From the IMG/VR virus record IMGVR_UViG_3300011116_001229: 64,000 nt of DNA. One strand, written 5' to 3'. The DNA comes from a virus (taxonomy: Duplodnaviria > Caudoviricetes). The first letter of the stretch is position 1; the number at the start of each line of letters is the position of its first letter. Of the stretch, positions 7,452-55,596 are shown in pieces. The notes under the pieces were generated by a model, which was given only the letters and a program-made list of their open reading frames with translations, was not told the DNA's origin and made no database searches. The translations under genes were made by a program, and so were the position numbers.

Positions 7452-10400
7452 ATGTCGTACACACGTGATGAAGCTTTTAACGCCTCTTTAAAGTATTTCA
7501 ACGGAGATGAATTAGCTGCGAGCGTATTTGTTGATAAATACGCGCTGAGAGACGCGTCAGGGAAATTACACGAACTGACACCGTCAGATATGCACCGTAG
7601 ACTGGCGCGTGAGTTTGCAAGAATTGAAGCCAAGTATCCCAATCCGTTGTCTGAAAAAGAAATCTTTTGTCTTTTGGCTGACGTAGATCACATTGAAGAA
7701 TCAAAGCGCGCATCTATGACATTGGATGAATTGGCTTCTGAATCTCGAGGATTCGGTGCCGTGGTGCCGCAGGGTTCTCCGATGTCGGCCATTGGTAATG
7801 AATTTCAGTATCAGTCGTTATCTAATTGCTTCGTGATTCAGTCGCCTTATGATTCCTACGCTGGTATCCTAAAAGCCGACCAAGAGCAAGCTCAAATCAT
7901 GAAACGTCGAGGAGGTGTTGGCTTTGATGTTTCTACTATTCGTCCAAAAGGATTAATCACAGCAAACGCTGCCCGTACCACAGACGGCATTGGGGTCTTC
8001 ATGGAAAGGTTCTCAAATACCTGCCGCGAAGTTGCCCAAGGTGGCCGCCGCGGAGCGTTAATGCTTACTATCGATGTTCACCACCCAGAGATCCGCACCT
8101 TCATCAACATCAAGCGCGACCTCAAGAAGGTTACTGGTGCCAACATCTCCATTCGTCTCACTGACGAATTCATGCAAGCAGTGAAAGATGGTGAAAAAGC
8201 ACACCTTAGATTCCCTGTTGAGAAGGACGCAAAGCATACAGTTGAAACTTGGGTTGATGCTCGAGAACTTTGGCATGAAATTATTGAAGCAGCTTGGGCT
8301 TCTGCAGAACCAGGACTATTATTCTGGGACACTGTCAAGAAGCGTACACCAACTGAGGCATATGAGGATTATCGTTCAACATCCACGAATCCATGTATTG
8401 TTGGTGATACGCTCATTGCCGTTGCAGACGGAAGAAATGCAGTCAGTATCCGTCAGCTTGCGGAAGAAGGCAAGGACGTTCCGGTGTATTCGACTAACCC
8501 AGAAACTGGTCAAGTTGAAATTAAATTAGGAAGAAAACCGAGACTAACAAAGAATCAAGTCGAGGTCTGGAAGTTGACGCTTGACGATGGAAGCTTCCTT
8601 ATTGCAACACCTGATCATAGGATCATGAAGCGCGACTGCACTTATGTGGAGCTTCAGAACCTAAAGTCTGGTGATTCCATCTTTCCATTCAACTCTTTTA
8701 ATTCAAATGGGTACAGACAAGTTTCCAACACAGGTGTCTTGATGACAGGCGGAGCTCGAAGAAATAGACGACAGTATCGTCTCATCCACGAGTTCCATTT
8801 TGGGCCCGTTGATCCAAAAATTCATGCTATTCATCATATTGATTGTGATTCTCTCAATGACAGCATTGAGAACATGAGGATCATGACCCATAAGGAACAT
8901 CATGATTTACATTCTAAGAACATGCTGGGGGAGAGCAATCCTTACTTCAAGATGTCTGAAGAGTGGAAAACAAACTTTGCAACCCATCCTGGCGAAACAA
9001 ATGGCAGATTCTCGGGCCATACTAACGATCAGCTTCTTGAACATGGCAGGAATCTATTTGAGAAACATGGCAAGCTGACAGGAAAGATCTGGTCGGACCA
9101 TGCCAAGAAACATGGTCTACCTCAATTCCTTGCAAATAAGTTCCGGTTTGAGTCTTGGAATAACTTTGTTAATCAGGTATCTAACAATCACAAGGTCGTC
9201 TCAGTAGAGAAATTCGGCATTGAGGATGTCTACAATATCACGGTTGACGATAATCACAACTACCATGTTATCACTTCACATGAGGATTCCAAGTTCGTGG
9301 TTTCCTCTGGCATCTGTGTCAAGAACTGCGGTGAAATCGTTCTATCACCATACGATTCTTGTAGGTTGCTTCTCGTCAATCTCTACAAGTTCGTCAAGAA
9401 CCCATTCACATCTGCTGCCTCATATGACAACGAGAGACTCAAGGATGTTGCAGTTAAAGCACAGCGTCTCATGGATGATCTCATCGACCTTGAGATTGAA
9501 GCTGTTGATAAGATCATTGCTAAGATTCAGAATGATCCAGAACCAGAAGACGTTAAAAGGTCTGAACTTGACCTCTGGACTAAGATTAAAAAAGCAGCTC
9601 TCGGAGGTCGGAGAACTGGCTTGGGTATCACTGCGCTTGGAGACACATTGGCTGCAATGGGCTTCGTCTACGGTTCAAAGAATTCTATCCAAATGACTGA
9701 ATCGCTCTACAAGGCATTAGCACTTTCTGCCTATCGTTCGACTGTCGCGATGGCTGCAGAGCGTGGTGCATTCCCAGTCTTCTCTCATAAGCTTGAGGAG
9801 AAGCATCCATTCATCCAACAAATCCTTGAAGCAGACCCTGATCTCGCAAAGGATTACAAGAAGCACGGCCGCCGAAACATCGCTCTAACAACTACAGCAC
9901 CGGCTGGTTCTGTGTCTGTCCTAACGCAAACGACGTCTGGTATCGAGCCGGCGTTCATGCTCTTCTACAAACGCCGCAAGAAGGTCAACGGTGATGATCC
10001 AAATGTTCGTGTCGACTTTGTAGATCCACTCGGCGACAAGTGGCAGGAGTACATGGTATACCATCATGCTTTCAAGAAGTGGATGGAGGTCAACGGAAAG
10101 ACCGAAACCGACTTCGCTGAGTCTCCATACCACGGCGGCACCGCAAATGAGATCGATTGGGTTGCCAAGGTCGACCTCCAAGCCGCCGCCCAGAAGTGGA
10201 TCTGTCATTCTATCTCCAACACAACAAACATTCCAAATTCAACTTCAGTTGATGTTGTCAAGGGCATCTACATGAGGGGTTGGGAGACTGGGTGTAAGGG
10301 TGTCACAATCTATCGTGATGGATGCCGAACCGGCGTTCTCGTAGCAGAGACTCCGAAGGAAGAGCAGACAATTGAAGGTCAGCCTGATACCTTAATAGAA

Positions 10401-10955
10401 AATCATGCACCAAAGCGACCCAAGGAATTAACCTGTGATATTCACAGAATTAACGTGAGGTCATCTGGTGACAATGAGAGCTATCTTGTTTTGGTGGGTA
10501 AGCTAGAAGATAAGCCATACGAAATCTTCTGCGGTCTATCGCAGCACGTTGAGGTACCGAAAAAAGCCAAGACAGGTACGATGATCAAGAATGGCAAGAA
10601 GGATGGGGTTGCGACCTACAATCTTCAGATTCCGATTGGTGATGATGATCAGCTATTGTTCAAGGACGTTGTAGAATTATTTTCAAATCCAAATCATGGA
10701 TCCATGACAAGAACTTTATCGTTAGCACTACGACATGGAGTTCCTGTTCAATACGTGGTTGAGCAGCTTCAAAAGGACAAACACAGCGGCCTTCAGTCTT
10801 TCTCTAGAGCTATCTCTCGTGTCTTAAAAACATATATTCCTGATGGAACAAAAGCGCAGTCAGACAAGATCTGCGGTTCTTGCGGTCTTGAAGGAATTGT
10901 CTACAAAGAAGGTTGCGCAACCTGTAACTCTTGCGGTTGGTCAAAATGTGGGTGA
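7452..10955 (+). CDS. nrdJ: Class II (B12-dependent) ribonucleotide reductase containing an intein
   Basis: LSNCFV, RRGGGVG, GGRRGA, TNP|CGE once the intein is removed, TAPAGS, TSGIEP, TIYRDG, C-terminal Cys ribbon. No beta-subunit gene nearby. Confidence 0.9.
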   Translation: MSYTRDEAFNASLKYFNGDELAASVFVDKYALRDASGKLHELTPSDMHRRLAREFARIEAKYPNPLSEKEIFCLLADVDHIEESKRASMTLDELASESRGFGAVVPQGSPMSAIGNEFQYQSLSNCFVIQSPYDSYAGILKADQEQAQIMKRRGGVGFDVSTIRPKGLITANAARTTDGIGVFMERFSNTCREVAQGGRRGALMLTIDVHHPEIRTFINIKRDLKKVTGANISIRLTDEFMQAVKDGEKAHLRFPVEKDAKHTVETWVDARELWHEIIEAAWASAEPGLLFWDTVKKRTPTEAYEDYRSTSTNPCIVGDTLIAVADGRNAVSIRQLAEEGKDVPVYSTNPETGQVEIKLGRKPRLTKNQVEVWKLTLDDGSFLIATPDHRIMKRDCTYVELQNLKSGDSIFPFNSFNSNGYRQVSNTGVLMTGGARRNRRQYRLIHEFHFGPVDPKIHAIHHIDCDSLNDSIENMRIMTHKEHHDLHSKNMLGESNPYFKMSEEWKTNFATHPGETNGRFSGHTNDQLLEHGRNLFEKHGKLTGKIWSDHAKKHGLPQFLANKFRFESWNNFVNQVSNNHKVVSVEKFGIEDVYNITVDDNHNYHVITSHEDSKFVVSSGICVKNCGEIVLSPYDSCRLLLVNLYKFVKNPFTSAASYDNERLKDVAVKAQRLMDDLIDLEIEAVDKIIAKIQNDPEPEDVKRSELDLWTKIKKAALGGRRTGLGITALGDTLAAMGFVYGSKNSIQMTESLYKALALSAYRSTVAMAAERGAFPVFSHKLEEKHPFIQQILEADPDLAKDYKKHGRRNIALTTTAPAGSVSVLTQTTSGIEPAFMLFYKRRKKVNGDDPNVRVDFVDPLGDKWQEYMVYHHAFKKWMEVNGKTETDFAESPYHGGTANEIDWVAKVDLQAAAQKWICHSISNTTNIPNSTSVDVVKGIYMRGWETGCKGVTIYRDGCRTGVLVAETPKEEQTIEGQPDTLIENHAPKRPKELTCDIHRINVRSSGDNESYLVLVGKLEDKPYEIFCGLSQHVEVPKKAKTGTMIKNGKKDGVATYNLQIPIGDDDQLLFKDVVELFSNPNHGSMTRTLSLALRHGVPVQYVVEQLQKDKHSGLQSFSRAISRVLKTYIPDGTKAQSDKICGSCGLEGIVYKEGCATCNSCGWSKCG
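8394..9326 (+). mobile_element. 311-aa intein with HNH homing endonuclease
   Basis: Starts CIVGDT and ends ICVKN before +1 Cys; block B ATPDH; HNH-type IHHID...N.SIENM...H. Removal restores NPCGE. Confidence 0.92.
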
Positions 10956-22960: not shown

Positions 22961-23030
22961 CGCGAGAACGTGTTATACTTTACAGACTGCTCGACTAATA
23001 ATTGCAGCTTGACTCAAACTTGGAGAAATT

Positions 23031-24011
23031 ATGCCCATTAATAAAGACCTACAGCCGATTGAACTACCCATGGAATTAAAGTTCGGACGACCTGTTCGCA
23101 CCAAGTTCCATAATAATATTGATGCACTAAAGATTGAGCTCGTCGACCATCCTGCGCGTCAACAAGCATGGAACGTCGCTTGGCATTATGTTAAGGCAAC
23201 TTGGGCAGATAGACCTGACATCTCGCCTGAGTCTGTATCGCATCGAGAACTTTCTAAAAACCTGGAAGATGTTTTCGGAGGCCGCACTCTGCCAGCGCCC
23301 ATGGAATGTCTTGGCTTCACATTTAGATTAAGTGGTATGTCTTTTCAAGAGGTGACTCATATTATCAGACATCGTGCAGGAACTTTTGCTGCACAATGCA
23401 CAGGCGATCGTGACCTCCGAGATGATGATGCAGTAATTCCAGAACCCGTAGAGAATTCACCTGAGTTCTTAGCGCGCTGGAAGAAGATTGTGGAAGATTC
23501 CAAGCAACTCTATGCTGATATGACTGATTCAAAGGTTGTGTCCATGATGGACGCACGTTTGATTCTACCAAAGTGCATGACGTCTTTCTACTACATGCGA
23601 CTTCCTCTCAAGGAGCTAATTGGCTTCATCTATCAACGTCAGGATAGGCAGATTCAGACGTCAGCTGATAATATTCTGGCAGCACGCATGGCAGTTGAGG
23701 TGGCTAAGGTCATTCCTGAGTTCACTACGCTAGTTGATTTCAACAAGCCTGACATGCACTACATCAAGACCTTCCGCGTGAAGGAAGGTGATAAGTTCGT
23801 GTCTCGCGGAACGAACCTCTATTGGCCGGAACCCAAGAACGACAAGTTTGAGTTCCACCCAGATGACACTATCTACCAGGCTCGCCGTGAAGAGCTCAAC
23901 GGCACGCATGGTGATGGCCCACAGCGAAAGTTTGTAGCTGCCTGGGATTCTGCAGTGTCCGAGTTTGAGAGTATTAAAAAGCAACACAATGATTGGAAGG
24001 AAGGTAAATAA
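23031..24011 (+). CDS. Divergent ThyX-family flavoprotein
   Basis: FTFRLSG, HIIRHR, DARLILP; the motif after RHR departs from canonical ThyX. Confidence 0.75.
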   Translation: MPINKDLQPIELPMELKFGRPVRTKFHNNIDALKIELVDHPARQQAWNVAWHYVKATWADRPDISPESVSHRELSKNLEDVFGGRTLPAPMECLGFTFRLSGMSFQEVTHIIRHRAGTFAAQCTGDRDLRDDDAVIPEPVENSPEFLARWKKIVEDSKQLYADMTDSKVVSMMDARLILPKCMTSFYYMRLPLKELIGFIYQRQDRQIQTSADNILAARMAVEVAKVIPEFTTLVDFNKPDMHYIKTFRVKEGDKFVSRGTNLYWPEPKNDKFEFHPDDTIYQARREELNGTHGDGPQRKFVAAWDSAVSEFESIKKQHNDWKEGK

Positions 24012-24053: not shown

Positions 24054-24233
24054 ATGAAACAATCGAAGATCTCGGTCGATGAAGAGACCCATAAATTGCT
24101 GAAGATATACTGTGCTCAGCACGGTCTGATTATGAGTCAGTTCACCGCCGAGATCATTCGAGAGAGGATTGGCAATGAAAGAGAAGATCTGCGCACAATG
24201 CGAAAAGAAATTTGTGCCAAAGAATCCATTTAG
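24054..24233 (+). CDS. Small ribbon-helix-helix-like protein
   Basis: SKISVDEETHKLLKIYC..HGLIMSQF. Confidence 0.5.
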   Translation: MKQSKISVDEETHKLLKIYCAQHGLIMSQFTAEIIRERIGNEREDLRTMRKEICAKESI

Positions 24234-25068
24234 TAATAAGTCTGGTTTCTTCTTTTGCTCGAAAGAGTGCACTTATCTTGCTCAGAAGAAGGGCGGTGTC
24301 ACATATGAGCTCCGTCGAAAGAGGTCACTAGAGAAGCACGGCACCGACTTTCCAATGTCTTGCCCTGAGATAAAGAATAAGCGCAGCAACAACAACATAA
24401 AAAAGTACGGTGTTGCCAGCACGTTTGAACTTGATTCAGTCAAAGAGAAGTCAAAAAAGACTTCACGTGAGAAATATGGGGTTGATGTTTACTCACAAAC
24501 AACAGAATTCAAGTCCAAGATCGAAGAGACAAATCTAAAGAGATTCGGACATAAGTCTCCGATAGAAAATCCCAACATTCTAGAACGACGACGGCAGACA
24601 ATGATCGACAGATGGGGAGGTCCATCAACTTTCGAATCACCTGTTCTACGAGCTCGCGCTGAAGATACCTGTATTGAAAAGTTCGGAGTTCATAATATTG
24701 TCTTATCGCCGACGTTTATCTCTTCTTCCATGGATAAGAAACTGCTCAAATCACATGGAAAAACTTGGCAGCAGTACATCGATGACCTACCTGAATTTCA
24801 GGATTATCGAAGAAAAGTCGATCACTTTACACGCATGCAGCCGATCGAACAGCTAGCCAATCATGATAAACGTGGTGAATATCATCTCGATCACAAGTTT
24901 TCAGTCGCTGAAGGGTTTAGACAAGGTCTACCACCCGAGGTGATAGGTCACATTGTGAATCTGGAATTCATACCGGCTGCAGAAAATCTTCGAAAACAGT
25001 CAAGTTGTTCAATTGACAAAGACGCATTACTATCAGAATACTCAACTAGAAAGGTAAATCAAAGATGA
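24175..25068 (+). mobile_element. Free-standing homing-endonuclease-like gene (Zn finger, KYGV-type repeats, C-terminal HNH-like domain)
   Basis: CAQC/CSKEC; about six (E/K)K(Y/F/H)G repeats; YHLDHKFS...NL....ENLRK. Confidence 0.7.
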
Positions 25069-25520
25069 ATCGAAAAAAGATGTATCTCGCAAGCGGATGG
25101 TTCAACCCTACACAGGAAGCAGAGCTCACGAGGCTCGAGCAGATTATGGAAGCACGTAAGGACTGGATCGATATGGCTTCACCACGTAGGATCTTCATCT
25201 GTCCACCTAATGCATCTCGTGAAGTACAAGATGCAACCTATCAGGGTAATCTTAAACACATCCGCGAGGCTGACTTCCTCGTTGTGAACACCCGCGACAA
25301 GGATCTCGGTACGATCATGGAATGTGGTTATGCTACAGCCTTTGACAAGCATATCATCTACTTCTGTGCAGGACTTCCCCCCGGAGCAAAATTTAATCTT
25401 ATGCTTTCAAGATCGGGTGCATTCGTGGCTACTTCGTTCGAACAACTCGAAGACTACCTCGATCGGTGCAAGTCTGCAGGCGAGATGCTTTACGAACCGT
25501 ACGACAAGGAAATTGAGTGA
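25065..25520 (+). CDS. Nucleoside 2-deoxyribosyltransferase / dNMP N-glycosidase family
   Basis: MYLASGWF, ADFLVV, DLGTIMECGYA (catalytic Glu motif). Confidence 0.85.
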   Translation: MNRKKMYLASGWFNPTQEAELTRLEQIMEARKDWIDMASPRRIFICPPNASREVQDATYQGNLKHIREADFLVVNTRDKDLGTIMECGYATAFDKHIIYFCAGLPPGAKFNLMLSRSGAFVATSFEQLEDYLDRCKSAGEMLYEPYDKEIE

Positions 25521-26783: not shown

Positions 26784-27776
26784 ATGCGTTTTTACATCAC
26801 AGGTGGTGCAGGTTTTATTGCTAGACATTTGAAGAAGAATCTGATTGTTAGAGGGCATTCGATTCTCTCGGACGCCGATCTGATCGGTGATGGCATGCTT
26901 ACCTTGCCCAAGACGGGTGAAGTCTGTGTGCATCGCAATTCAGAAGACGCTTGGACAAGAGCTTTTGAAAAATACGGCGTTGATGTTGTTGTGCACAATG
27001 CAGCTGTGGTGGGAACAGACGTGGTTGCTCTCAATCCCGCAGAAGCGACTCTGAGCAACGTGCACGGTTCTTACAATATTGTTAGAGCAGCTAACGCAAC
27101 TGGTGCCGGCGTGTGCTACATGGGTACCACCGTGATTTATGACACGCCTTCCTACCAGAACCAGCAAATTTTTGAAGATTCTGTCAGAAAACCACTTACG
27201 TACTACGGCGTACAGAAGCTTGCAGGTGAACAGATCATCACCAGCATGGCAAAACGCTGGTCTGTGGTGCGTCCTCTCTTCGCTTTTGGTGACGAGGGTG
27301 ACATGAATTCACTCATCGCCAAGAGTATCTATGCATCCTTGCAGAACAAAGATTCTGTTGACATCTTCTTAGACCCCGCGAAGATCAAGGATTATCTCCA
27401 CGTGTCCGATTACTGTGAAGCCGTGTCGATGATCTGTGAGAGCAAGGATGGTTGGGGTACTGATTTTAACGTCGCAGCTGAGACACCTCACACCGCCGCA
27501 GAGATCATGAATCTTGTTTCTCGTGTTGTCGGGAAAAACGTAGAAAAAATCGTCCGCTGGTATCCAAAGACTGATTATCTCGGAAACCACAGACTGTCAT
27601 CTGCCAAGGTCAGAAAGCAAATTGGCTGGTCTCCGAAGCTTGACTTGGAGGGCGGCGTCAAGGCGACTTACGATTGGATTTCTTCAAATTCATCTAAGAA
27701 CTATAACCCTCTGAAGTATCTCGATGAAGCTAAGTCGAAAGGTACAGATCTACTGCAACATTTCCCTAAAGTTTGA
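26784..27776 (+). CDS. NAD-dependent NDP-sugar epimerase/dehydratase (extended SDR)
   Basis: ITGGAGFIA, HNAA, YGVQK (YxxxK), KDYLHVSD; GGAGG Shine-Dalgarno. Confidence 0.88.
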   Translation: MRFYITGGAGFIARHLKKNLIVRGHSILSDADLIGDGMLTLPKTGEVCVHRNSEDAWTRAFEKYGVDVVVHNAAVVGTDVVALNPAEATLSNVHGSYNIVRAANATGAGVCYMGTTVIYDTPSYQNQQIFEDSVRKPLTYYGVQKLAGEQIITSMAKRWSVVRPLFAFGDEGDMNSLIAKSIYASLQNKDSVDIFLDPAKIKDYLHVSDYCEAVSMICESKDGWGTDFNVAAETPHTAAEIMNLVSRVVGKNVEKIVRWYPKTDYLGNHRLSSAKVRKQIGWSPKLDLEGGVKATYDWISSNSSKNYNPLKYLDEAKSKGTDLLQHFPKV

Positions 27777-27878
27777 CGTGTAAATAACTAGTATGTGTGT
27801 GATGTTCTCCATATTTATAATGAGTCTCGAGAAAAGATACGGCCTTGTGCCGTAACTATTTGACCACCGGAGGAAACA

Positions 27879-28772
27879 ATGGAGAGTAAATGTGAAGTTT
27901 GCGGAATTAGCATAGAATCAAAACCAAGACTACGTACTTGTTCAAAAAAATGCGGTTACGTGTTGAGAAGTCGTACTAGAAATATAAAACATGAGCCTGT
28001 TGAAAAGATATGTCTCGACTGCGAGTGTAATTTTCAAGATACTTCAAAAAAGAAGTTAGTCGTTAGATGCAAACCATGCATAAACAATTCCATGGTTGCT
28101 ACACGTTACGCAAGAGGAAGCTATGAGCGCTCAGAAGAGCAGAACGAGAAATTGTCTATTACGCTTAAGACAAAGTACGAATCAGGATGGAACCCTAACA
28201 CTGAAGAGCATCGAGAAAAATTATCCGAGGGAATGAAGGCTCGCTGGCAAGATGGTTCAATGAGAAAGAAGTCGGTTGCAACAACGCTTGAAAAGTATGG
28301 AGTTGAGCACTGGGCGCAGTCTGAAGAAGGAAAGACAGTGCTATCACAGAGGTCAAGAGGCAGAAAATTTTCTGATGAAACTCGTAAAAATATGAGTCAA
28401 GGCGCTGCAAGGCGCATTAGAGAGAATAATAATCATTATGAACGAGGTAATGGAGGTTTTAGAGAAGACCTCGGACACTATGTACGGAGTAACTGGGAAG
28501 CTAATTTTGCTAGAATATTAAAAATTCAAGGAAAGTCTTACGAATACGAACCTAAGACATTTCAAATTGCTGAGGATAAAACGTATACACCCGATTTTCT
28601 TGTCGATGGTATTTTCTACGAAGTTAAAGGCTATTGGACCGAAAAATCGAAACTTAAATTAGAATCATTTGTAAAAATATATCCCGAAATAGAATTGCAA
28701 ATCATCGACGGCACAAAGTACAATGAGCTTAGAGAAGCTTACCAAGATCTAATTCACTGGGAAGGCAAATAA
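27879..28772 (+). mobile_element. Homing-endonuclease-like gene (Zn fingers, NUMOD3-like segment, T7 endonuclease I-like PD-(D/E)XK domain)
   Basis: CEVCG/CSKKC, CLDC/CKPC, KYGV, GRKFSDETR, RSNWE...YEYEP...YTPDF...EVKGYW. Confidence 0.75.
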
Positions 28773-28775
28773 TAA

Positions 28776-31700
28776 ATGAACAGCACAAAGGAGAAGAGCT
28801 ACTTGAAGCTTGAGTCCGTGCGACCTCCTACTCGGTTTGTGGGGTTTCACGCGCACTCAGGCTTCTCGTAAAGTTACGACATTTGACGGTTTGGGTTACC
28901 CTGCAGATCACATTGCCTTTGTCACCTCTGAGTCACAAGGCATGGATGCCTGGGCACTGACAGATCACGGCAATGGCAACGGACTTGCACACGCACATTC
29001 TGCTGCCAAGAAGATTCAGAAGAAAGGTGTGAAGTATCGACAGCTCTACGGCGTGGAGTTCTACTTCGTTCCTTCACTTTCGCAGTGGCGTATCGATTAC
29101 GAGGCCCACAAGCAATCAGTCAAGGACGCGAAGTCTGCAGCTGAGGCTGAGAAGAAAGCAAAGATTCGAACTGACATCGACGCTGACGAGGCAGCAGAGG
29201 AAGAGGAGGCCGGTGGCCACGTCGTGGAGGATGAGGCAGAGACGAAGGCCGACGACTACAAGGAGAAGCCTGACTGGCAGCGTCGTTACCACCTCGTGGC
29301 AGTGGCGCAGTCAGCTGAGGGGCTCGCGAACATCAACCGTCTCGTCAAGGCATCATTTAAAGACGGATTCTACCGTTATCCACGCATCGACTTCGACCTC
29401 CTCAGAAAGTGGGGCAAAGGGATCGTGTGGTCGAGCGCCTGCCTCGGCGGAACAATGGCGGGTACAATTCTACGAGGCGTAGCACATAATAGAACTTCTG
29501 AGCAAATTATTGCTGATCTTGAAGTTCTCACAGGTCAGTTCGTCGAAGCAGTCGGCCAAGAGAACTTCTTCCTCGAACTGCAATTCAATAAGCTCGAGAA
29601 ACAACACACCGTAAACAAGTACCTCATCGACCTGTCTCGAAAGACCGGTGTGAAGCTGCTGGCCACATGCGACTCTCACTATCCAGATCCCTCCAAGTGG
29701 CAGGCCCGTGAGCTCTACAAGAAGCTGGGCTGGATGGGCACGAAGCTAGACGAGCAAGCACTACCGAAGTTCGAGGACCTGAAGTGCGAGCTGTATCCCA
29801 AGAACGCTACCCAGATGTGGGACGAGTTCAAGAAGTCCTACGAACAGTACGACTTCTACAAGGGTTCCGAGGAGGAAGTTCGTGACGCGATCGAGCGGAC
29901 TCACGACGTCGCTTGGCAGCATTGCGAGGACACTTGGGTCGATGTGAAACCAAAGCTGCCCAAGGTCGACACACCAGAAAAAACAGCATTCCAGCAGCTC
30001 ACTGAGCTTGTTAAAGAAGGTCTTACCCGCGAAGGTCTTGCTGATAAGCCTGAGTATGTCGATCGAGCTAAATATGAGCTCGGAGACATCAAATATCTGA
30101 ATTGTGCTTCTTACTTCATTACGATGTATAAAGTGTTCAATCTTGCGAAGGAGAAGACGCTCTTTGGAAGCGGCCGCGGGAGTGGTGCGGGATCGCTCGT
30201 CAACTTCCTGTTAGGCATCACGCAGATCGATCCGATACCATACGGTTTGCTTTGGAGCAGATTTTTAGGACGACACCGAGTGAGCTTTCCGGATATCGAT
30301 ACAGACGCAGGTGACAGGGATGTCCTTATCGATGCGGCACGAACTCTGTTCGGCGATGACGCCGTGATCCCGGTGTCCAACTTCAACACCCTGAAGCTCA
30401 AGTCCCTCGTCAAGGACATCGCCAAGATCTACGGCGTGCCCTTCGAGGAGGTGAACGAGATGACCGGCCCTCTCCAGGACGAGGTGATGCCGCTGGCTCG
30501 AGACGAGGACCAGGAGAAGTCGGTCTTCGTGCTGAAGCATGAGGACTGCATGAAGTACTCGCCGAAGTACACGGCCTTCATGGAGAAGTATCCTGACGTT
30601 GCTGCACACGTCGAGACACTGTTCATGCAGAACAGGTCCATCGGAAGGCATGCAGGAGGCGTACTCTTAGCAGATCCTGAAGATCTTGCTGCAAACATGC
30701 CTATCATTGGCGTCAGAGGCGAGCTGCAGACACCGTGGACAGAGGGTATGAACTTCCGCAATCTGGAGGATAACGGCTTCTTGAAGTTTGACTTCCTAGG
30801 TCTCACGCTTCTCAAAGATGTCGAGAACTGCATTAGACGCATTCTCATCAAGAATGGCAATCTTGATCCTACCTTCCTGGACATTAGAGGCTTCTTCGAC
30901 AAGCATCTAAACTGTCGATACGTGAAGCAGGACGATCCTGCTGTGTGGAAGCATGTCTACCAGGACGGCTCGTTTGTGTCAGTCTTCCAGATGACTGCAG
31001 AGGGTGCTCGGAAGTTCTGCAAGGCAGTTAAACCGACGAAGATCGAAGACCTCACAGCTATTACAGCGATCTACCGCCCTGGGCCTCTCAAAGCAAACGT
31101 GCACAACCTCTTTGTCGAAGCTAGAAAGCTTGACAAGATCAATTACCCACACCCAATCATCGAGCAAGTCCTTGGACCTACGAAAAATTTCGTTGTGTAT
31201 CAGGAACAATTTATGTTGTTAGCAGAAAAACTAGGTGGCTTTACACCTGGTGAAGCTGATCAGCTGCGCAAGACGCTAGTTAAGAAGTCGCTTGACACGC
31301 TGGACAAAAAGTCATCAGAGAAGGAGCTTGCTAAGCAGAAGTTTATTGAGGGTGCTCAGCGACTTCACGGAGTTCCTCCAGAAGTGACCGAGCCTCTTTG
31401 GCAAACAATTGACAACATGAGCGTCTATTGTTTCAATAAATCCCACAGTTTAGCATATGCTATCGATTCCTACTATGCAGCATGGCTTCATACACACTAC
31501 GAGAAAGAGTGGCTGGCAACTGCACTTCAATCAGCTTCCAGCAACCCAAAAGAACTTGCGAAGACGATCTCCGAGATCAAGGCGTTAGGCTTCAAGTTCT
31601 CGAAGCACGACATCAACTACTCGGGCAAGGAGTGGCAGTTCTCTGAGGAGGCCGATGCTTTCGTGCCGCCTCTCGGTTCAGTGAAGGGAATTGGATCTGC

Positions 31701-32409
31701 AGCAGTTGAAGAGATCATGGCGAACAGGCCCTACAAGGATCTAGCTACTATGCTCTATGACGACGCAGGTGAGTGGCGACACAGCAAGGTGAACAAGACA
31801 GCTCTGTCAGCTCTTTGCAAGATTGATGCGCTTTCTTCTTTGGAAGATTTTAATCTAGGTAGAGTTAATAATCATAAGCAACTTCTAATGGCTTTGACAG
31901 ATGACAAGAATTACGAGATGCTTCGACGTGGTCTCTACGGCCTGACTGCATCGCAGCTGAAGAAGAAAGCTAAGGCCGGCGAAAAGATCGAAGCTTTCTT
32001 GGATCTAATGCTTACATCGCTAACAAATGTCGAAGATTGGTCTCGAGAAGAAAAGATTGAGATGTGTCAAGATTTAACACAATCTGTGGACACTGACCTG
32101 CTGTTTCCTCCCGCAGTCATGGAAAAGATTGCAGAAAAAAATGTTCCAAAACTTCATGATGTACCAGCAGGGGCTGAGGGAATAGGATGGTTCTGCGTTG
32201 CTGAAATTCAAATGAAGAAAACTAAGAATGGTAAAGTTTTCTATCGAATTAAAGCAACAGACGATGAACATCGAACAGCTTGGGTTAGAGCATGGGGAAC
32301 TCCAAAGGAAGAAATTCGTCCATACACACTTTGGGTTGCTCAAGTTCAAAATGATCCAAACTGGGGATTCTCAACGTCTGTGTATAAGATGCGTGAACTA
32401 GTTGGGTGA
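28776..32409 (+). CDS. dnaE: DNA polymerase III alpha (DnaE), interrupted: segment 28776-28868, 10-nt gap 28869-28878, segment 28879-32409
   Basis: First segment encodes FVGFHAHSGFS then TAA. The +1 frame resumes TFDG and continues TDHGN, GRGSGAGS, FPDIDTD, HAGG, KFDFLGL, YRPGP, YQEQ, FNKSH, KGIG and an OB domain. Confidence 0.93.
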
Positions 32410-54783: not shown

Positions 54784-55596
54784 TTATTTAGAAGAGTTTT
54801 CTTGAGGTTGTTGTTCTAACAACCTTCGTTTTTCTTCACGATTTTTAGCTTGAGTCTTGCGTCTTTTTTCAATCGTTTCTTGAGAAGGAGAAGGTCTGGG
54901 CTTTCCCTTTTGGGATTCTGACATTCTTTTTTTCGTTTCTTCTGAACGTTTTCTTCCTTTACTAACGGCAGATAACTTTTGCCTCGTTTCTTCTGAAACT
55001 GGCTTTTTATTCTCTGCTATCTTTTTCTTTTGTTCTTCCGTAAGCTTCCACTTTCTTCTGGCTTCAGAAAGCTTTCTTCGATGTTCTTCTGATTTAGGAC
55101 CGGTATTTTTCCCCTTCATAGACTCAGACATTTTGCGAAGTGTTTCTTCAGAATGAGGTGGAGGTTTTTTGCCTTTGTTGACTTCCCGAAGCTTTTGTTT
55201 ATGTTCTTCAGAAAGATGTTTGCCACGGAATGAAGAACCTCGTATATAACGTTGTTCATCTGAAAGATTTGAATTTGCTTCTTTTATCTTTTGTATTGTT
55301 TCAGTTGAAAACTCAAAATGATCGCCGCCAGACGTTAGGTTATAACCTCGTTTAAAAGAATCGAATCTTTCTATCCATACACGTTCTCGTTCATTTGTAA
55401 CTTCATCTTCACACTCTTCTATTATTTCGAATGTAAAGTTTTCTTTACCGTATTTTCTAATAGCAGCGTGAAATTTATATCCTGTTCCTTTTAACGCTTC
55501 ACAAAGATGACCCCTTACTCTTTTGTTAAAATCTTTTGTTTGTCCTACATAACATTTACCATCTAACAAATTTTTTGCCAAATAAATAAACCGCAT
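54784..55596 (-). mobile_element. GIY-YIG homing endonuclease with NUMOD3 repeats
   Basis: FIY...N...K.YVGQT, R...H, E; repeated (H/V)SEET/H..K.S units. Confidence 0.88.

Follow-up and report, generated by a model that had tools for sequence, protein, structure and literature searches.

A recurrent gap in the coding sequence of phage dnaE, linked to a T7-endonuclease-I-like gene and probably hopped over by ribosomes

Introduction

In gene 60 of bacteriophage T4, ribosomes bypass 50 nucleotides (nt) of the message, and the bypassed stretch comes with a cassette that carries the homing endonuclease gene mobA (Huang 1988, Bonocora 2011, both as cited in PMC5009743). The hallmarks of the gene 60 cassette are paired or wobble-matched take-off and landing codons, a stop codon after the take-off codon, a stem-loop and a homing endonuclease (bioRxiv 10.1101/2022.08.31.505936). 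Manning and Atkins (2022, bioRxiv 10.1101/2022.08.31.505936) found gene-60-type cassettes only in topoisomerase genes and called bypassing 'an isolated phenomenon'. Counterparts 'perhaps involving shorter distances' have long been presumed, and natural stop-hops were not known to Atkins et al. (2016); as of the review PMC5009743, no natural in-frame stop-hop was known. Our full-text literature searches returned no description of bypassing in dnaE. Here we describe a short gap in the coding sequence of dnaE, the replicative polymerase gene, in a stretch of 64,000 nt of DNA from an uncultured lake phage (Duplodnaviria; Caudoviricetes; IMG/VR record IMGVR_UViG_3300011116_001229), called the window below. 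As in T4 gene 60, an essential replication gene is interrupted after a few dozen codons by a non-coding stretch, and a free-standing endonuclease gene lies a short way upstream.

The gap is real, it recurs among related dnaE loci, it is linked to a nuclease gene, and it is flanked by coding sequence under selection. Comparison of the carriers with one another and with insert-free relatives makes it probable that the gap belongs to a homing-endonuclease cassette and that ribosomes hop over it by a peptidyl-tRNA-Ser route.

Results

On the plus strand of the window, the frame that opens at ATG 28776 runs for 31 codons (open reading frame 1, ORF1; 28776-28868; MNSTKEKSYLKLESVRPPTRFVGFHAHSGFS), reads ...RFVGFHAHSGFS and closes with the codons GGC TTC TCG, directly followed by TAA (28869-28871). 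The second reading frame, ORF2 (28879-32409, plus strand), restarts at ACA (Thr) with TFDGLGYP... and continues intact for 1,177 codons; its frame, +1 relative to that of ORF1, is open from 28807, contains a TTG at 28810 and ends at 32409. Between the two lies a gap of 10 nt (TAAAGTTACG; 28869-28878, plus strand). The first-pass annotation of this DNA had read an ATG at 28776, an AAGGAG, a TTG at 28803 and the TCG followed by TAA, and all of these are present in the sequence, the AAGGAG at 28788-28793. It had also assigned the +1 frame to DnaE, an assignment upheld by the presence of the Pfam PHP, DNA_pol3_alpha, finger and HHH_6 domains, and had proposed that deletion of exactly 10 nt (28869-28878, with CG repeated on both sides) restores the PHP motif. 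The deletion does yield HAHSGFSTFDG, with the spacing of intact relatives such as P0004 (FHGHSGFSTFDG) and P0069 (FHAHSGFSTFDG). The recorded window protein begins only at Met-45 (MDAWALT...), and many relatives likewise start at MDAWALT.

An assembly artefact, a doubt raised in the first-pass annotation, does not account for the gap. Logan contigs from three independent studies, none of them the probable source (X2 record 5, X3 record 10 and X13 record 2), cross 28866-28879 with 0 differences and 0 gaps, and because three independent assemblies carry the gap unchanged, it is not an assembly error. Since these were contigs and not raw reads, rare molecules that lack the gap may still exist. 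One further contig (X3 record 12) joins the window sequence at 28906 and reads an uninterrupted ...STFDGLGYPA upstream of the join; a gap-free relative or a recombinant therefore co-occurs in the same lake sample.

For comparison, 166 related dnaE loci were fetched from IMG/VR, JGI/ENA metagenomes and Logan assemblies (80 of 382 metagenome matches were kept), and the distance from the first His codon of the motif H.HS..S..DG to its Asp codon, canonically 27 nt, was taken as a measure of the gap. The canonical distance was found in 126 of 160 loci, and in one locus it differs by a simple 3-nt indel that contains no stop. An extra 5, 9, 10, 11, 12, 38, 39, 40 or 56 nt is present in 33 loci and in the window, in 22 distinct forms. 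The extra sequence lies at one of two positions: the shorter gaps (5-12 nt) follow Ser-7, the Ser of xFS, which is the position found in the window (site 2), and the longer ones (38-56 nt) follow Ser-4, the Ser of H.HS, 9 nt further upstream (site 1). No sequence has both gaps together, and removal of the gap restores the H.HS..S..DG motif in all 22 forms. Two relatives are particularly close in form to the window: L161 (78% protein identity) has an identical 10-nt gap except for TGA in place of TAA, and L084 (82% identity) has a 5-nt version, TCG|TA|ACG. A pattern scan of IMG/VR for window-type gaps (TCGTRR..ACGAC..) returned 46 stretches, all of them chance matches, with 0 in a dnaE context. 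Among cultured phages, megablast of the region gave no match and tblastn of DnaE gave distant relatives only (at most ~34%), leaving no cultured model. A search of 185,579 species genomes returned a single match, a 1.1-kb dnaE fragment (82% amino acid identity; L216, RGVT01000512.1) in a metagenome-assembled genome of Planctomycetia; this is probably a mis-binned phage contig and at most a weak hint of the host.

The codons at the edges of the gaps follow a consistent pattern. All 22 distinct forms have TCG or TCC immediately ahead of the gap, and in the window this proposed take-off codon is TCG (Ser; 28866-28868, plus strand), the last codon of ORF1. The first codon of the gap is a stop in 21 of the 22 forms (TAG in 11, TAA in 5 and TGA in 5). 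In the window, TAA 28869-28871 would occupy the ribosomal A site at take-off; among close relatives the identity of the stop differs while it remains a stop, as with TAA in the window and TGA in L161. The sole form without an immediate stop is the 56-nt gap of L162 (L162 1367-1434), in which the first stop falls in the loop. The last codon of the gap, the proposed landing codon, is TCG, TCC, TCT or TCA in 18 forms and ACG in four (the window, L161, L084 and L102); in the window it lies at 28876-28878 (plus strand). Take-off and landing codons thus match as UCN to UCN in 18 of 22 forms, while the four with ACG match TCG in two of three bases. Pairings are restricted: a TCC take-off is followed by TCC or TCT only and a TCG take-off by TCG, TCA, TCT or ACG, giving the take-off > landing pairs G>G, C>C, C>U, G>U, G>A and UCG>ACG. 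By wobble rules, each of the 18 UCN landing codons can be read by the same tRNA-Ser as its take-off codon. The other family of serine codons is avoided: AGC or AGT stands at Ser-7 in 51% of 93 distinct insert-free genes and in 0 of 22 carriers at take-off or landing. Stop-codon reassignment, suppression and simple readthrough were ruled out as a general answer, because all three stops occur and many of the gaps shift the frame (five frame-shifting lengths).

The gene directly upstream of the gapped dnaE, a context absent from the first-pass annotation, encodes a free-standing endonuclease of 297 amino acids (27879-28772, plus strand), and its stop codon lies 4 nt before the dnaE ATG. The protein combines a Cys-rich N-terminal DUF7487 region with a T7-endonuclease-I-like nuclease domain. 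It matches Pfam Phage_endo_I at residues 202-276 with 29.0 bits, just below the 29.1-bit cutoff, PHROG families 945 and 29037 (both 'endonuclease'), and PDB entry 1M0D in a phmmer search (E 1e-6). The segments WEANFAR, YTPDF and E.KG do not vary among seven full-length copies and align with the active-site region of T7 endonuclease I; we take the E of WEANFAR, the D of YTPDF and the E.K of E.KG to be catalytic residues. The N-terminal repeats resemble NUMOD3 DNA-binding modules by eye, a likeness not confirmed by Pfam. With tblastn against cultured phages, the endonuclease gave distant relatives only, with matches to its nuclease domain in haloviruses, Agrobacterium phage OLIVR4 and Bacillus phage G. 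A hidden Markov model built from the seven full-length copies detected the endonuclease or a C-terminal remnant of it directly upstream of dnaE in 25 of the 32 carriers with upstream sequence, compared with 3 of 127 non-carriers (L075, L076 and, weakly, L009). The remnants measure 26-143 residues and one is frameshifted; carriers with the gap at site 1 have remnants or nothing only.

Comparison with empty sites defines the extent of the insertion. In L169 (85% DnaE identity), L167 and L168, ~45 nt separate an epimerase gene from dnaE. By blastn, the window is 91% identical to L169 up to position 27784, and similarity returns at 28879, the first base beyond the gap. These limits place the cassette at 27785-28878 (plus strand); it comprises a spacer, the endonuclease gene, its own 5' segment of dnaE (codons 1-31) and the gap. 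The ORF1 peptides of carriers are alike across distant DnaE clades: KEMRDV(R/T/S)PP occurs in all site-1 carriers with a remnant, KEKSYLKLES or ERRYLEKVEL occurs in site-2 carriers, and the N-terminal peptide of the window is shared with the carrier L161. The N-terminal peptide of carriers is specific to the cassette and longer: a median of 22 residues precedes the first His in carriers compared with 15 in non-carriers (Mann-Whitney p = 1e-9). To the left of the cassette, the epimerase genes of the window and L169 are 88-94% identical, and to the right of the gap identity is 66-78% over ~1.2 kb, followed by an island of 97-99% at 30071-30520. This mosaic fits co-conversion of the flank with the cassette, and phage mosaicism could give the same pattern. 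A FastTree phylogeny was built from 119 unique DnaE sequences. Sequences without a gap, with a gap at site 1 and with a gap at site 2 are scattered over it, and at least 15 changes between these three states are required; in the freshwater clade of the window, 14 of 16 members have a gap, and the window, with its gap at site 2, is nested among site-1 carriers.

From these comparisons we infer the homing activity of the nuclease, its target site and the hop itself, as follows. A selfish DNA cassette (27785-28878) would have inserted at the start of the replicative polymerase gene. The position of the gap suggests that the PHP-motif sequence, where the 5' end of dnaE is most conserved, is the target of the endonuclease in naive genomes; a gap within this target would make the carrier immune to cutting, and the insert would be tolerated through bypass by the ribosome. 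In the window, a ribosome would translate ORF1 as far as the Ser codon UCG (28866-28868) and meet UAA in the A site; the peptidyl-tRNA-Ser would then unpair, move 10 nt downstream and re-pair with ACG (28876-28878), and decoding would restart at ACA (28879) to give a single chain, ...HAHSGFS-TFDG.... Across the family, take-off would occur at UCG or UCC with a stop in the A site, and re-pairing at the next compatible codon, 5-56 nt downstream, would set the frame. A hop from UCG to the near-cognate ACG, producing full-length polymerase, is what the first-pass annotation had suggested, and it is the reading that the comparative evidence favors. The window encodes no tRNA genes, and thus no phage-borne suppressor or special tRNA-Ser.

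Both flanks of the gap show constraint at the protein level. Over the 14 codons that end at H.HS, the proportions of synonymous (pS) and nonsynonymous (pN) differences among 20 distinct carriers are 0.79 and 0.20, a ratio of 0.25; over RFVGxHxHS the ratio in 20 distinct carriers is 0.14. For the 14 codons after the gap (xFDGLGYPxxHIxF), carriers have a pN/pS of 0.17 and non-carriers one of 0.16, at a pS of ~0.8. By these ratios, both flanks are translated under purifying selection. The 14 post-gap codons precede Met-45, the start used by gene callers, and since they are as constrained as in non-carriers, translation in carriers begins upstream of Met-45. These measurements bear on the possibility that the two frames are never joined, so that dnaE is a fractured gene whose ORF1 peptide and ORF2 product (begun at TTG 28810 or at Met-45, 28942) remain separate or assemble non-covalently. 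For the window and for many relatives, gene callers do set the start of the protein at MDAWALT, and homing-endonuclease insertions are known to split genes, as in T4 gene 39/60 (PMC5009743). Nevertheless, a fractured gene is unlikely: the equal constraint between the gap and Met-45 speaks against it, and also against ORF1 as a dead remnant. In the in-frame carriers, the stretch from the stop to the codon at which decoding resumes contains no ATG, GTG or TTG, which likewise speaks against a fractured gene and makes re-initiation unlikely. The +1-frame peptide begun at TTG 28810 (LSPCDLLL...) is not conserved DnaE sequence, and ORF1 has only 31 residues and bears the HxH metal ligands.

A +1 frameshift at UCG-UAA-A would offer another route between the frames in the lineage of the window. 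The slow stop would allow Lys-tRNA to read AAA in the +1 frame and yield GFS-KVT-TFDG, a product with three extra residues in the PHP loop. Several features are compatible with such a shift: there is no stop in the +1 frame from 28807 onwards, +1 shifts are classically stimulated by a stop in the A site, L079 tolerates a one-residue insertion in the PHP loop, and the ACG landing codon is only near-cognate. However, UCG is unable to re-pair in the +1 frame (CGU), unlike the codon at a prfB-like +1 site, and no Shine-Dalgarno-like sequence is seen in the bases just upstream of the site in the window. The 5-nt gap of L084 would need a different shift (-1 or +2), and neither the stop-containing gaps of 9 and 12 nt, which keep the frame, nor those of 38-56 nt can be rescued by a shift of +1 or -1. 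Moreover, the +1 product would place three extra residues in a motif of invariant length, whereas the hop alone restores the spacing in all 22 forms; we therefore hold frameshifting to be improbable.

Hairpins distinguish the long gaps from the short ones. The first-pass annotation had described a hairpin across the gap of the window, and the inverted repeat TCGTA-AAGT-TACGA (28866-28879, plus strand; arms 28866-28870 and 28875-28879) is indeed real, covers the take-off, stop and landing codons and forms the minimum-energy fold. At -4.2 kcal/mol, however, this fold is equalled by 93 of 200 shuffled sequences (z = 0.01), and on its own it is thus not above chance. L161 keeps the inverted repeat with one G-U pair. 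When 12 sites with short gaps were folded as RNA, the z-scores ranged from -0.8 to +1.0, so that hairpins at these sites lack statistical support. The 38-40-nt gaps hold an 11-bp hairpin in which 98.8% of alignment cells are paired and five pairs have changed on both sides; its covariation score was reached by 0 of 500 shuffles, and when the structure is displaced by 1-3 columns, the paired share of cells drops to 43-51%. Fold z-scores for long gaps are -5.3 (L055), -8.9 (L102) and -9.6 (L162), and the take-off codon and the landing region form the outer pairs of the long-gap folds. The fold of L162 is an 18-bp perfect stem (-43 kcal/mol) that begins at the take-off codon itself.

Such strong hairpins are possible processing sites, and the gap might be removed from the mRNA before translation, either as a micro-intron, which the first-pass annotation had considered, or by other RNA processing. 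We find this account improbable: at 5-12 nt, the short gaps are much smaller than any known self-splicing intron, a search of 27700-29300 against Rfam gave no match at E <= 1, and splicing predicts neither a stop as the first codon of the gap nor tRNA-compatible Ser codons at its edges with AGC and AGT avoided. That the locus is a dead pseudogene or a sequencing artefact, as a frame-breaking stop within an essential gene might suggest, is scarcely credible given the identical sequence in three independent assemblies, the intact 1,177-codon ORF2 with purifying selection on both flanks, and the persistence of the gap in L161, where protein identity is down to 78% and the stop is TGA instead of TAA.

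Several observations on the nuclease genes of related loci stand apart from the bypass itself. In L075 (316-1092) and L076 (1528-2304), an ORF with the nuclease domain (E 1e-8) lies directly upstream of a gapless dnaE with the motif HSHTNFS; substitutions might confer immunity here, unless the enzyme targets another sequence. The remnants in L081-L083, L088, L102, L107, L116 and L163 always keep the last 26-47 codons of the endonuclease gene, ending WEGK-stop, and their TGG GAA GG provides a Shine-Dalgarno-like GGAAGG ~10 nt before the dnaE ATG, a role that may explain the survival of this 3' remnant. A related nuclease of ~310 amino acids is encoded within dnaE itself in three insert-free relatives (L056 4154-5083, L069 3210-4142 and L080 4070-5008); these ORFs sit within an insertion of ~1.4 kb and may encode an endonuclease borne by an intron or belonging to a fractured gene.

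Selfish elements are abundant in the window. A second ORF of the DUF7487 family (24175-25065, plus strand; 297 amino acids, 84 bits) lies between a thyX-like gene (23019-24011; 91% amino acid identity to Thy1 of L167) and a nucleoside 2-deoxyribosyltransferase gene (25065-25517; 65% amino acid identity), which are adjacent in the insert-free L167. It looks like another free-standing insertion, one that shares its N-terminal domain with the dnaE-linked endonuclease, and here too the downstream gene is more divergent; no gap was seen in that downstream gene. A homing-type endonuclease gene with GIY-YIG and NUMOD3 domains lies at 54787-55596 (minus strand), and the large subunit of ribonucleotide reductase (7452-10952, plus strand) contains an intein bearing an HNH endonuclease domain. 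A scan across the window of other long ORFs with a start-less 5' extension gave no second convincing bypass candidate.

Discussion

Several considerations weigh against a ribosomal hop over a homing-endonuclease cassette. The polymerase gene is presumably essential, and in E. coli constructs ribosomes make short hops inefficiently when nothing assists them (compare PMC5009743). Neither the 5-bp hairpin of the window nor any hairpin of the short gaps is better than expected from shuffled sequence. The landing codon of the window, ACG, differs from the take-off codon at the first position and so falls outside the rule of the gene 60 cassette. The association between gap and nuclease, with a Fisher p of 1e-19, was computed on rows that share ancestry and are not phylogenetically independent, and 7 of 32 carriers have no nuclease remnant. 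With regard to the mismatch, an ACG landing codon arose independently in L102 and is also found in L161 and L084, each time forming the complement of UCGUA; as a speculation, the mismatch may be offset by base pairing of the take-off region with the landing region.

On balance, we lean towards the view that aquatic jumbo-type phages carry a natural series of programmed bypass sites, with gaps of 5-56 nt at two Ser codons of dnaE, that originated and diversified as immunity inserts of a T7-endonuclease-I-like homing endonuclease. If this is true, bypassing would be a recurrent and convergent answer to attack by homing endonucleases and not a curiosity of T4. The series would include the first natural short 'stop-hops' and the first hops with near-cognate landing, and its graded gap lengths, stops, landing codons and hairpins would open the rules of take-off, sliding and landing to direct tests. 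Phage replication genes are also mis-annotated at such sites, because gene callers truncate gapped polymerases, as in the window record that starts at Met-45.

Three described systems offer partial parallels. Synthetic 'stop-hops' in E. coli (Weiss et al. 1987, as reviewed in PMC5009743) share the layout of the 9-12-nt dnaE gaps; in the account of that review they are engineered and of low efficiency, whereas the dnaE sites are natural, conserved and located in an essential gene. The mitochondrial 'byps' of Magnusiomyces capitatus (Lang 2014, as cited in PMC5009743) are, like the dnaE gaps, short non-coding inserts in protein genes that are presumed mobile and have matched take-off and landing codons. 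As they are presented there, byps measure 27-55 nt and are spread over many mitochondrial genes with no link to an endonuclease gene, whereas in the window dnaE is the only gene with such a gap. The free-standing seg and mob homing endonucleases of T-even phages and their 'fractured genes' (PMC2677866) resemble the dnaE cassette in the placement of a nuclease gene beside a conserved target gene, in presence/absence polymorphism between close relatives, and in an adjacent gene segment that is more divergent than the other flank. Immunity in dnaE, however, apparently comes from an insertion that needs recoding, not from silent substitutions, an intron or an intein.

The closest parallel remains T4 gene 60. 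In both systems a stop directly follows the take-off codon, the take-off and landing codons are matched or wobble-matched (in dnaE, in 18 of 22 forms; near-cognate in the window), a stem-loop that includes the take-off codon is present (in dnaE, in the long gaps), and the endonuclease decays while the gap stays ('hit and run'). Insertion is recurrent in each, at one site within about one codon in gene 60 and at two sites 9 nt apart in dnaE. The two differ in the interrupted gene (the PHP motif of dnaE as opposed to a topoisomerase), in the nuclease (T7-endonuclease-I-like PD-(D/E)XK as opposed to the HNH enzyme MobA), in the take-off residue (Ser as opposed to Gly or Asp) and in the length of the gap (5-56 nt as opposed to ~50), and they have no detectable sequence homology; the dnaE case is proposed here from sequence comparison. 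Because its endonuclease matches Phage_endo_I and 1M0D rather than HNH enzymes, and because the gene that hosts it is dnaE, the dnaE cassette is an analogue of the gene 60/MobA cassette and not a member of that group. If ribosomes do hop over these gaps, they would represent an independent origin of bypassing, in a different gene and with a different family of nuclease, beside the near-unique case of T4 gene 60 and its topoisomerase homologues.

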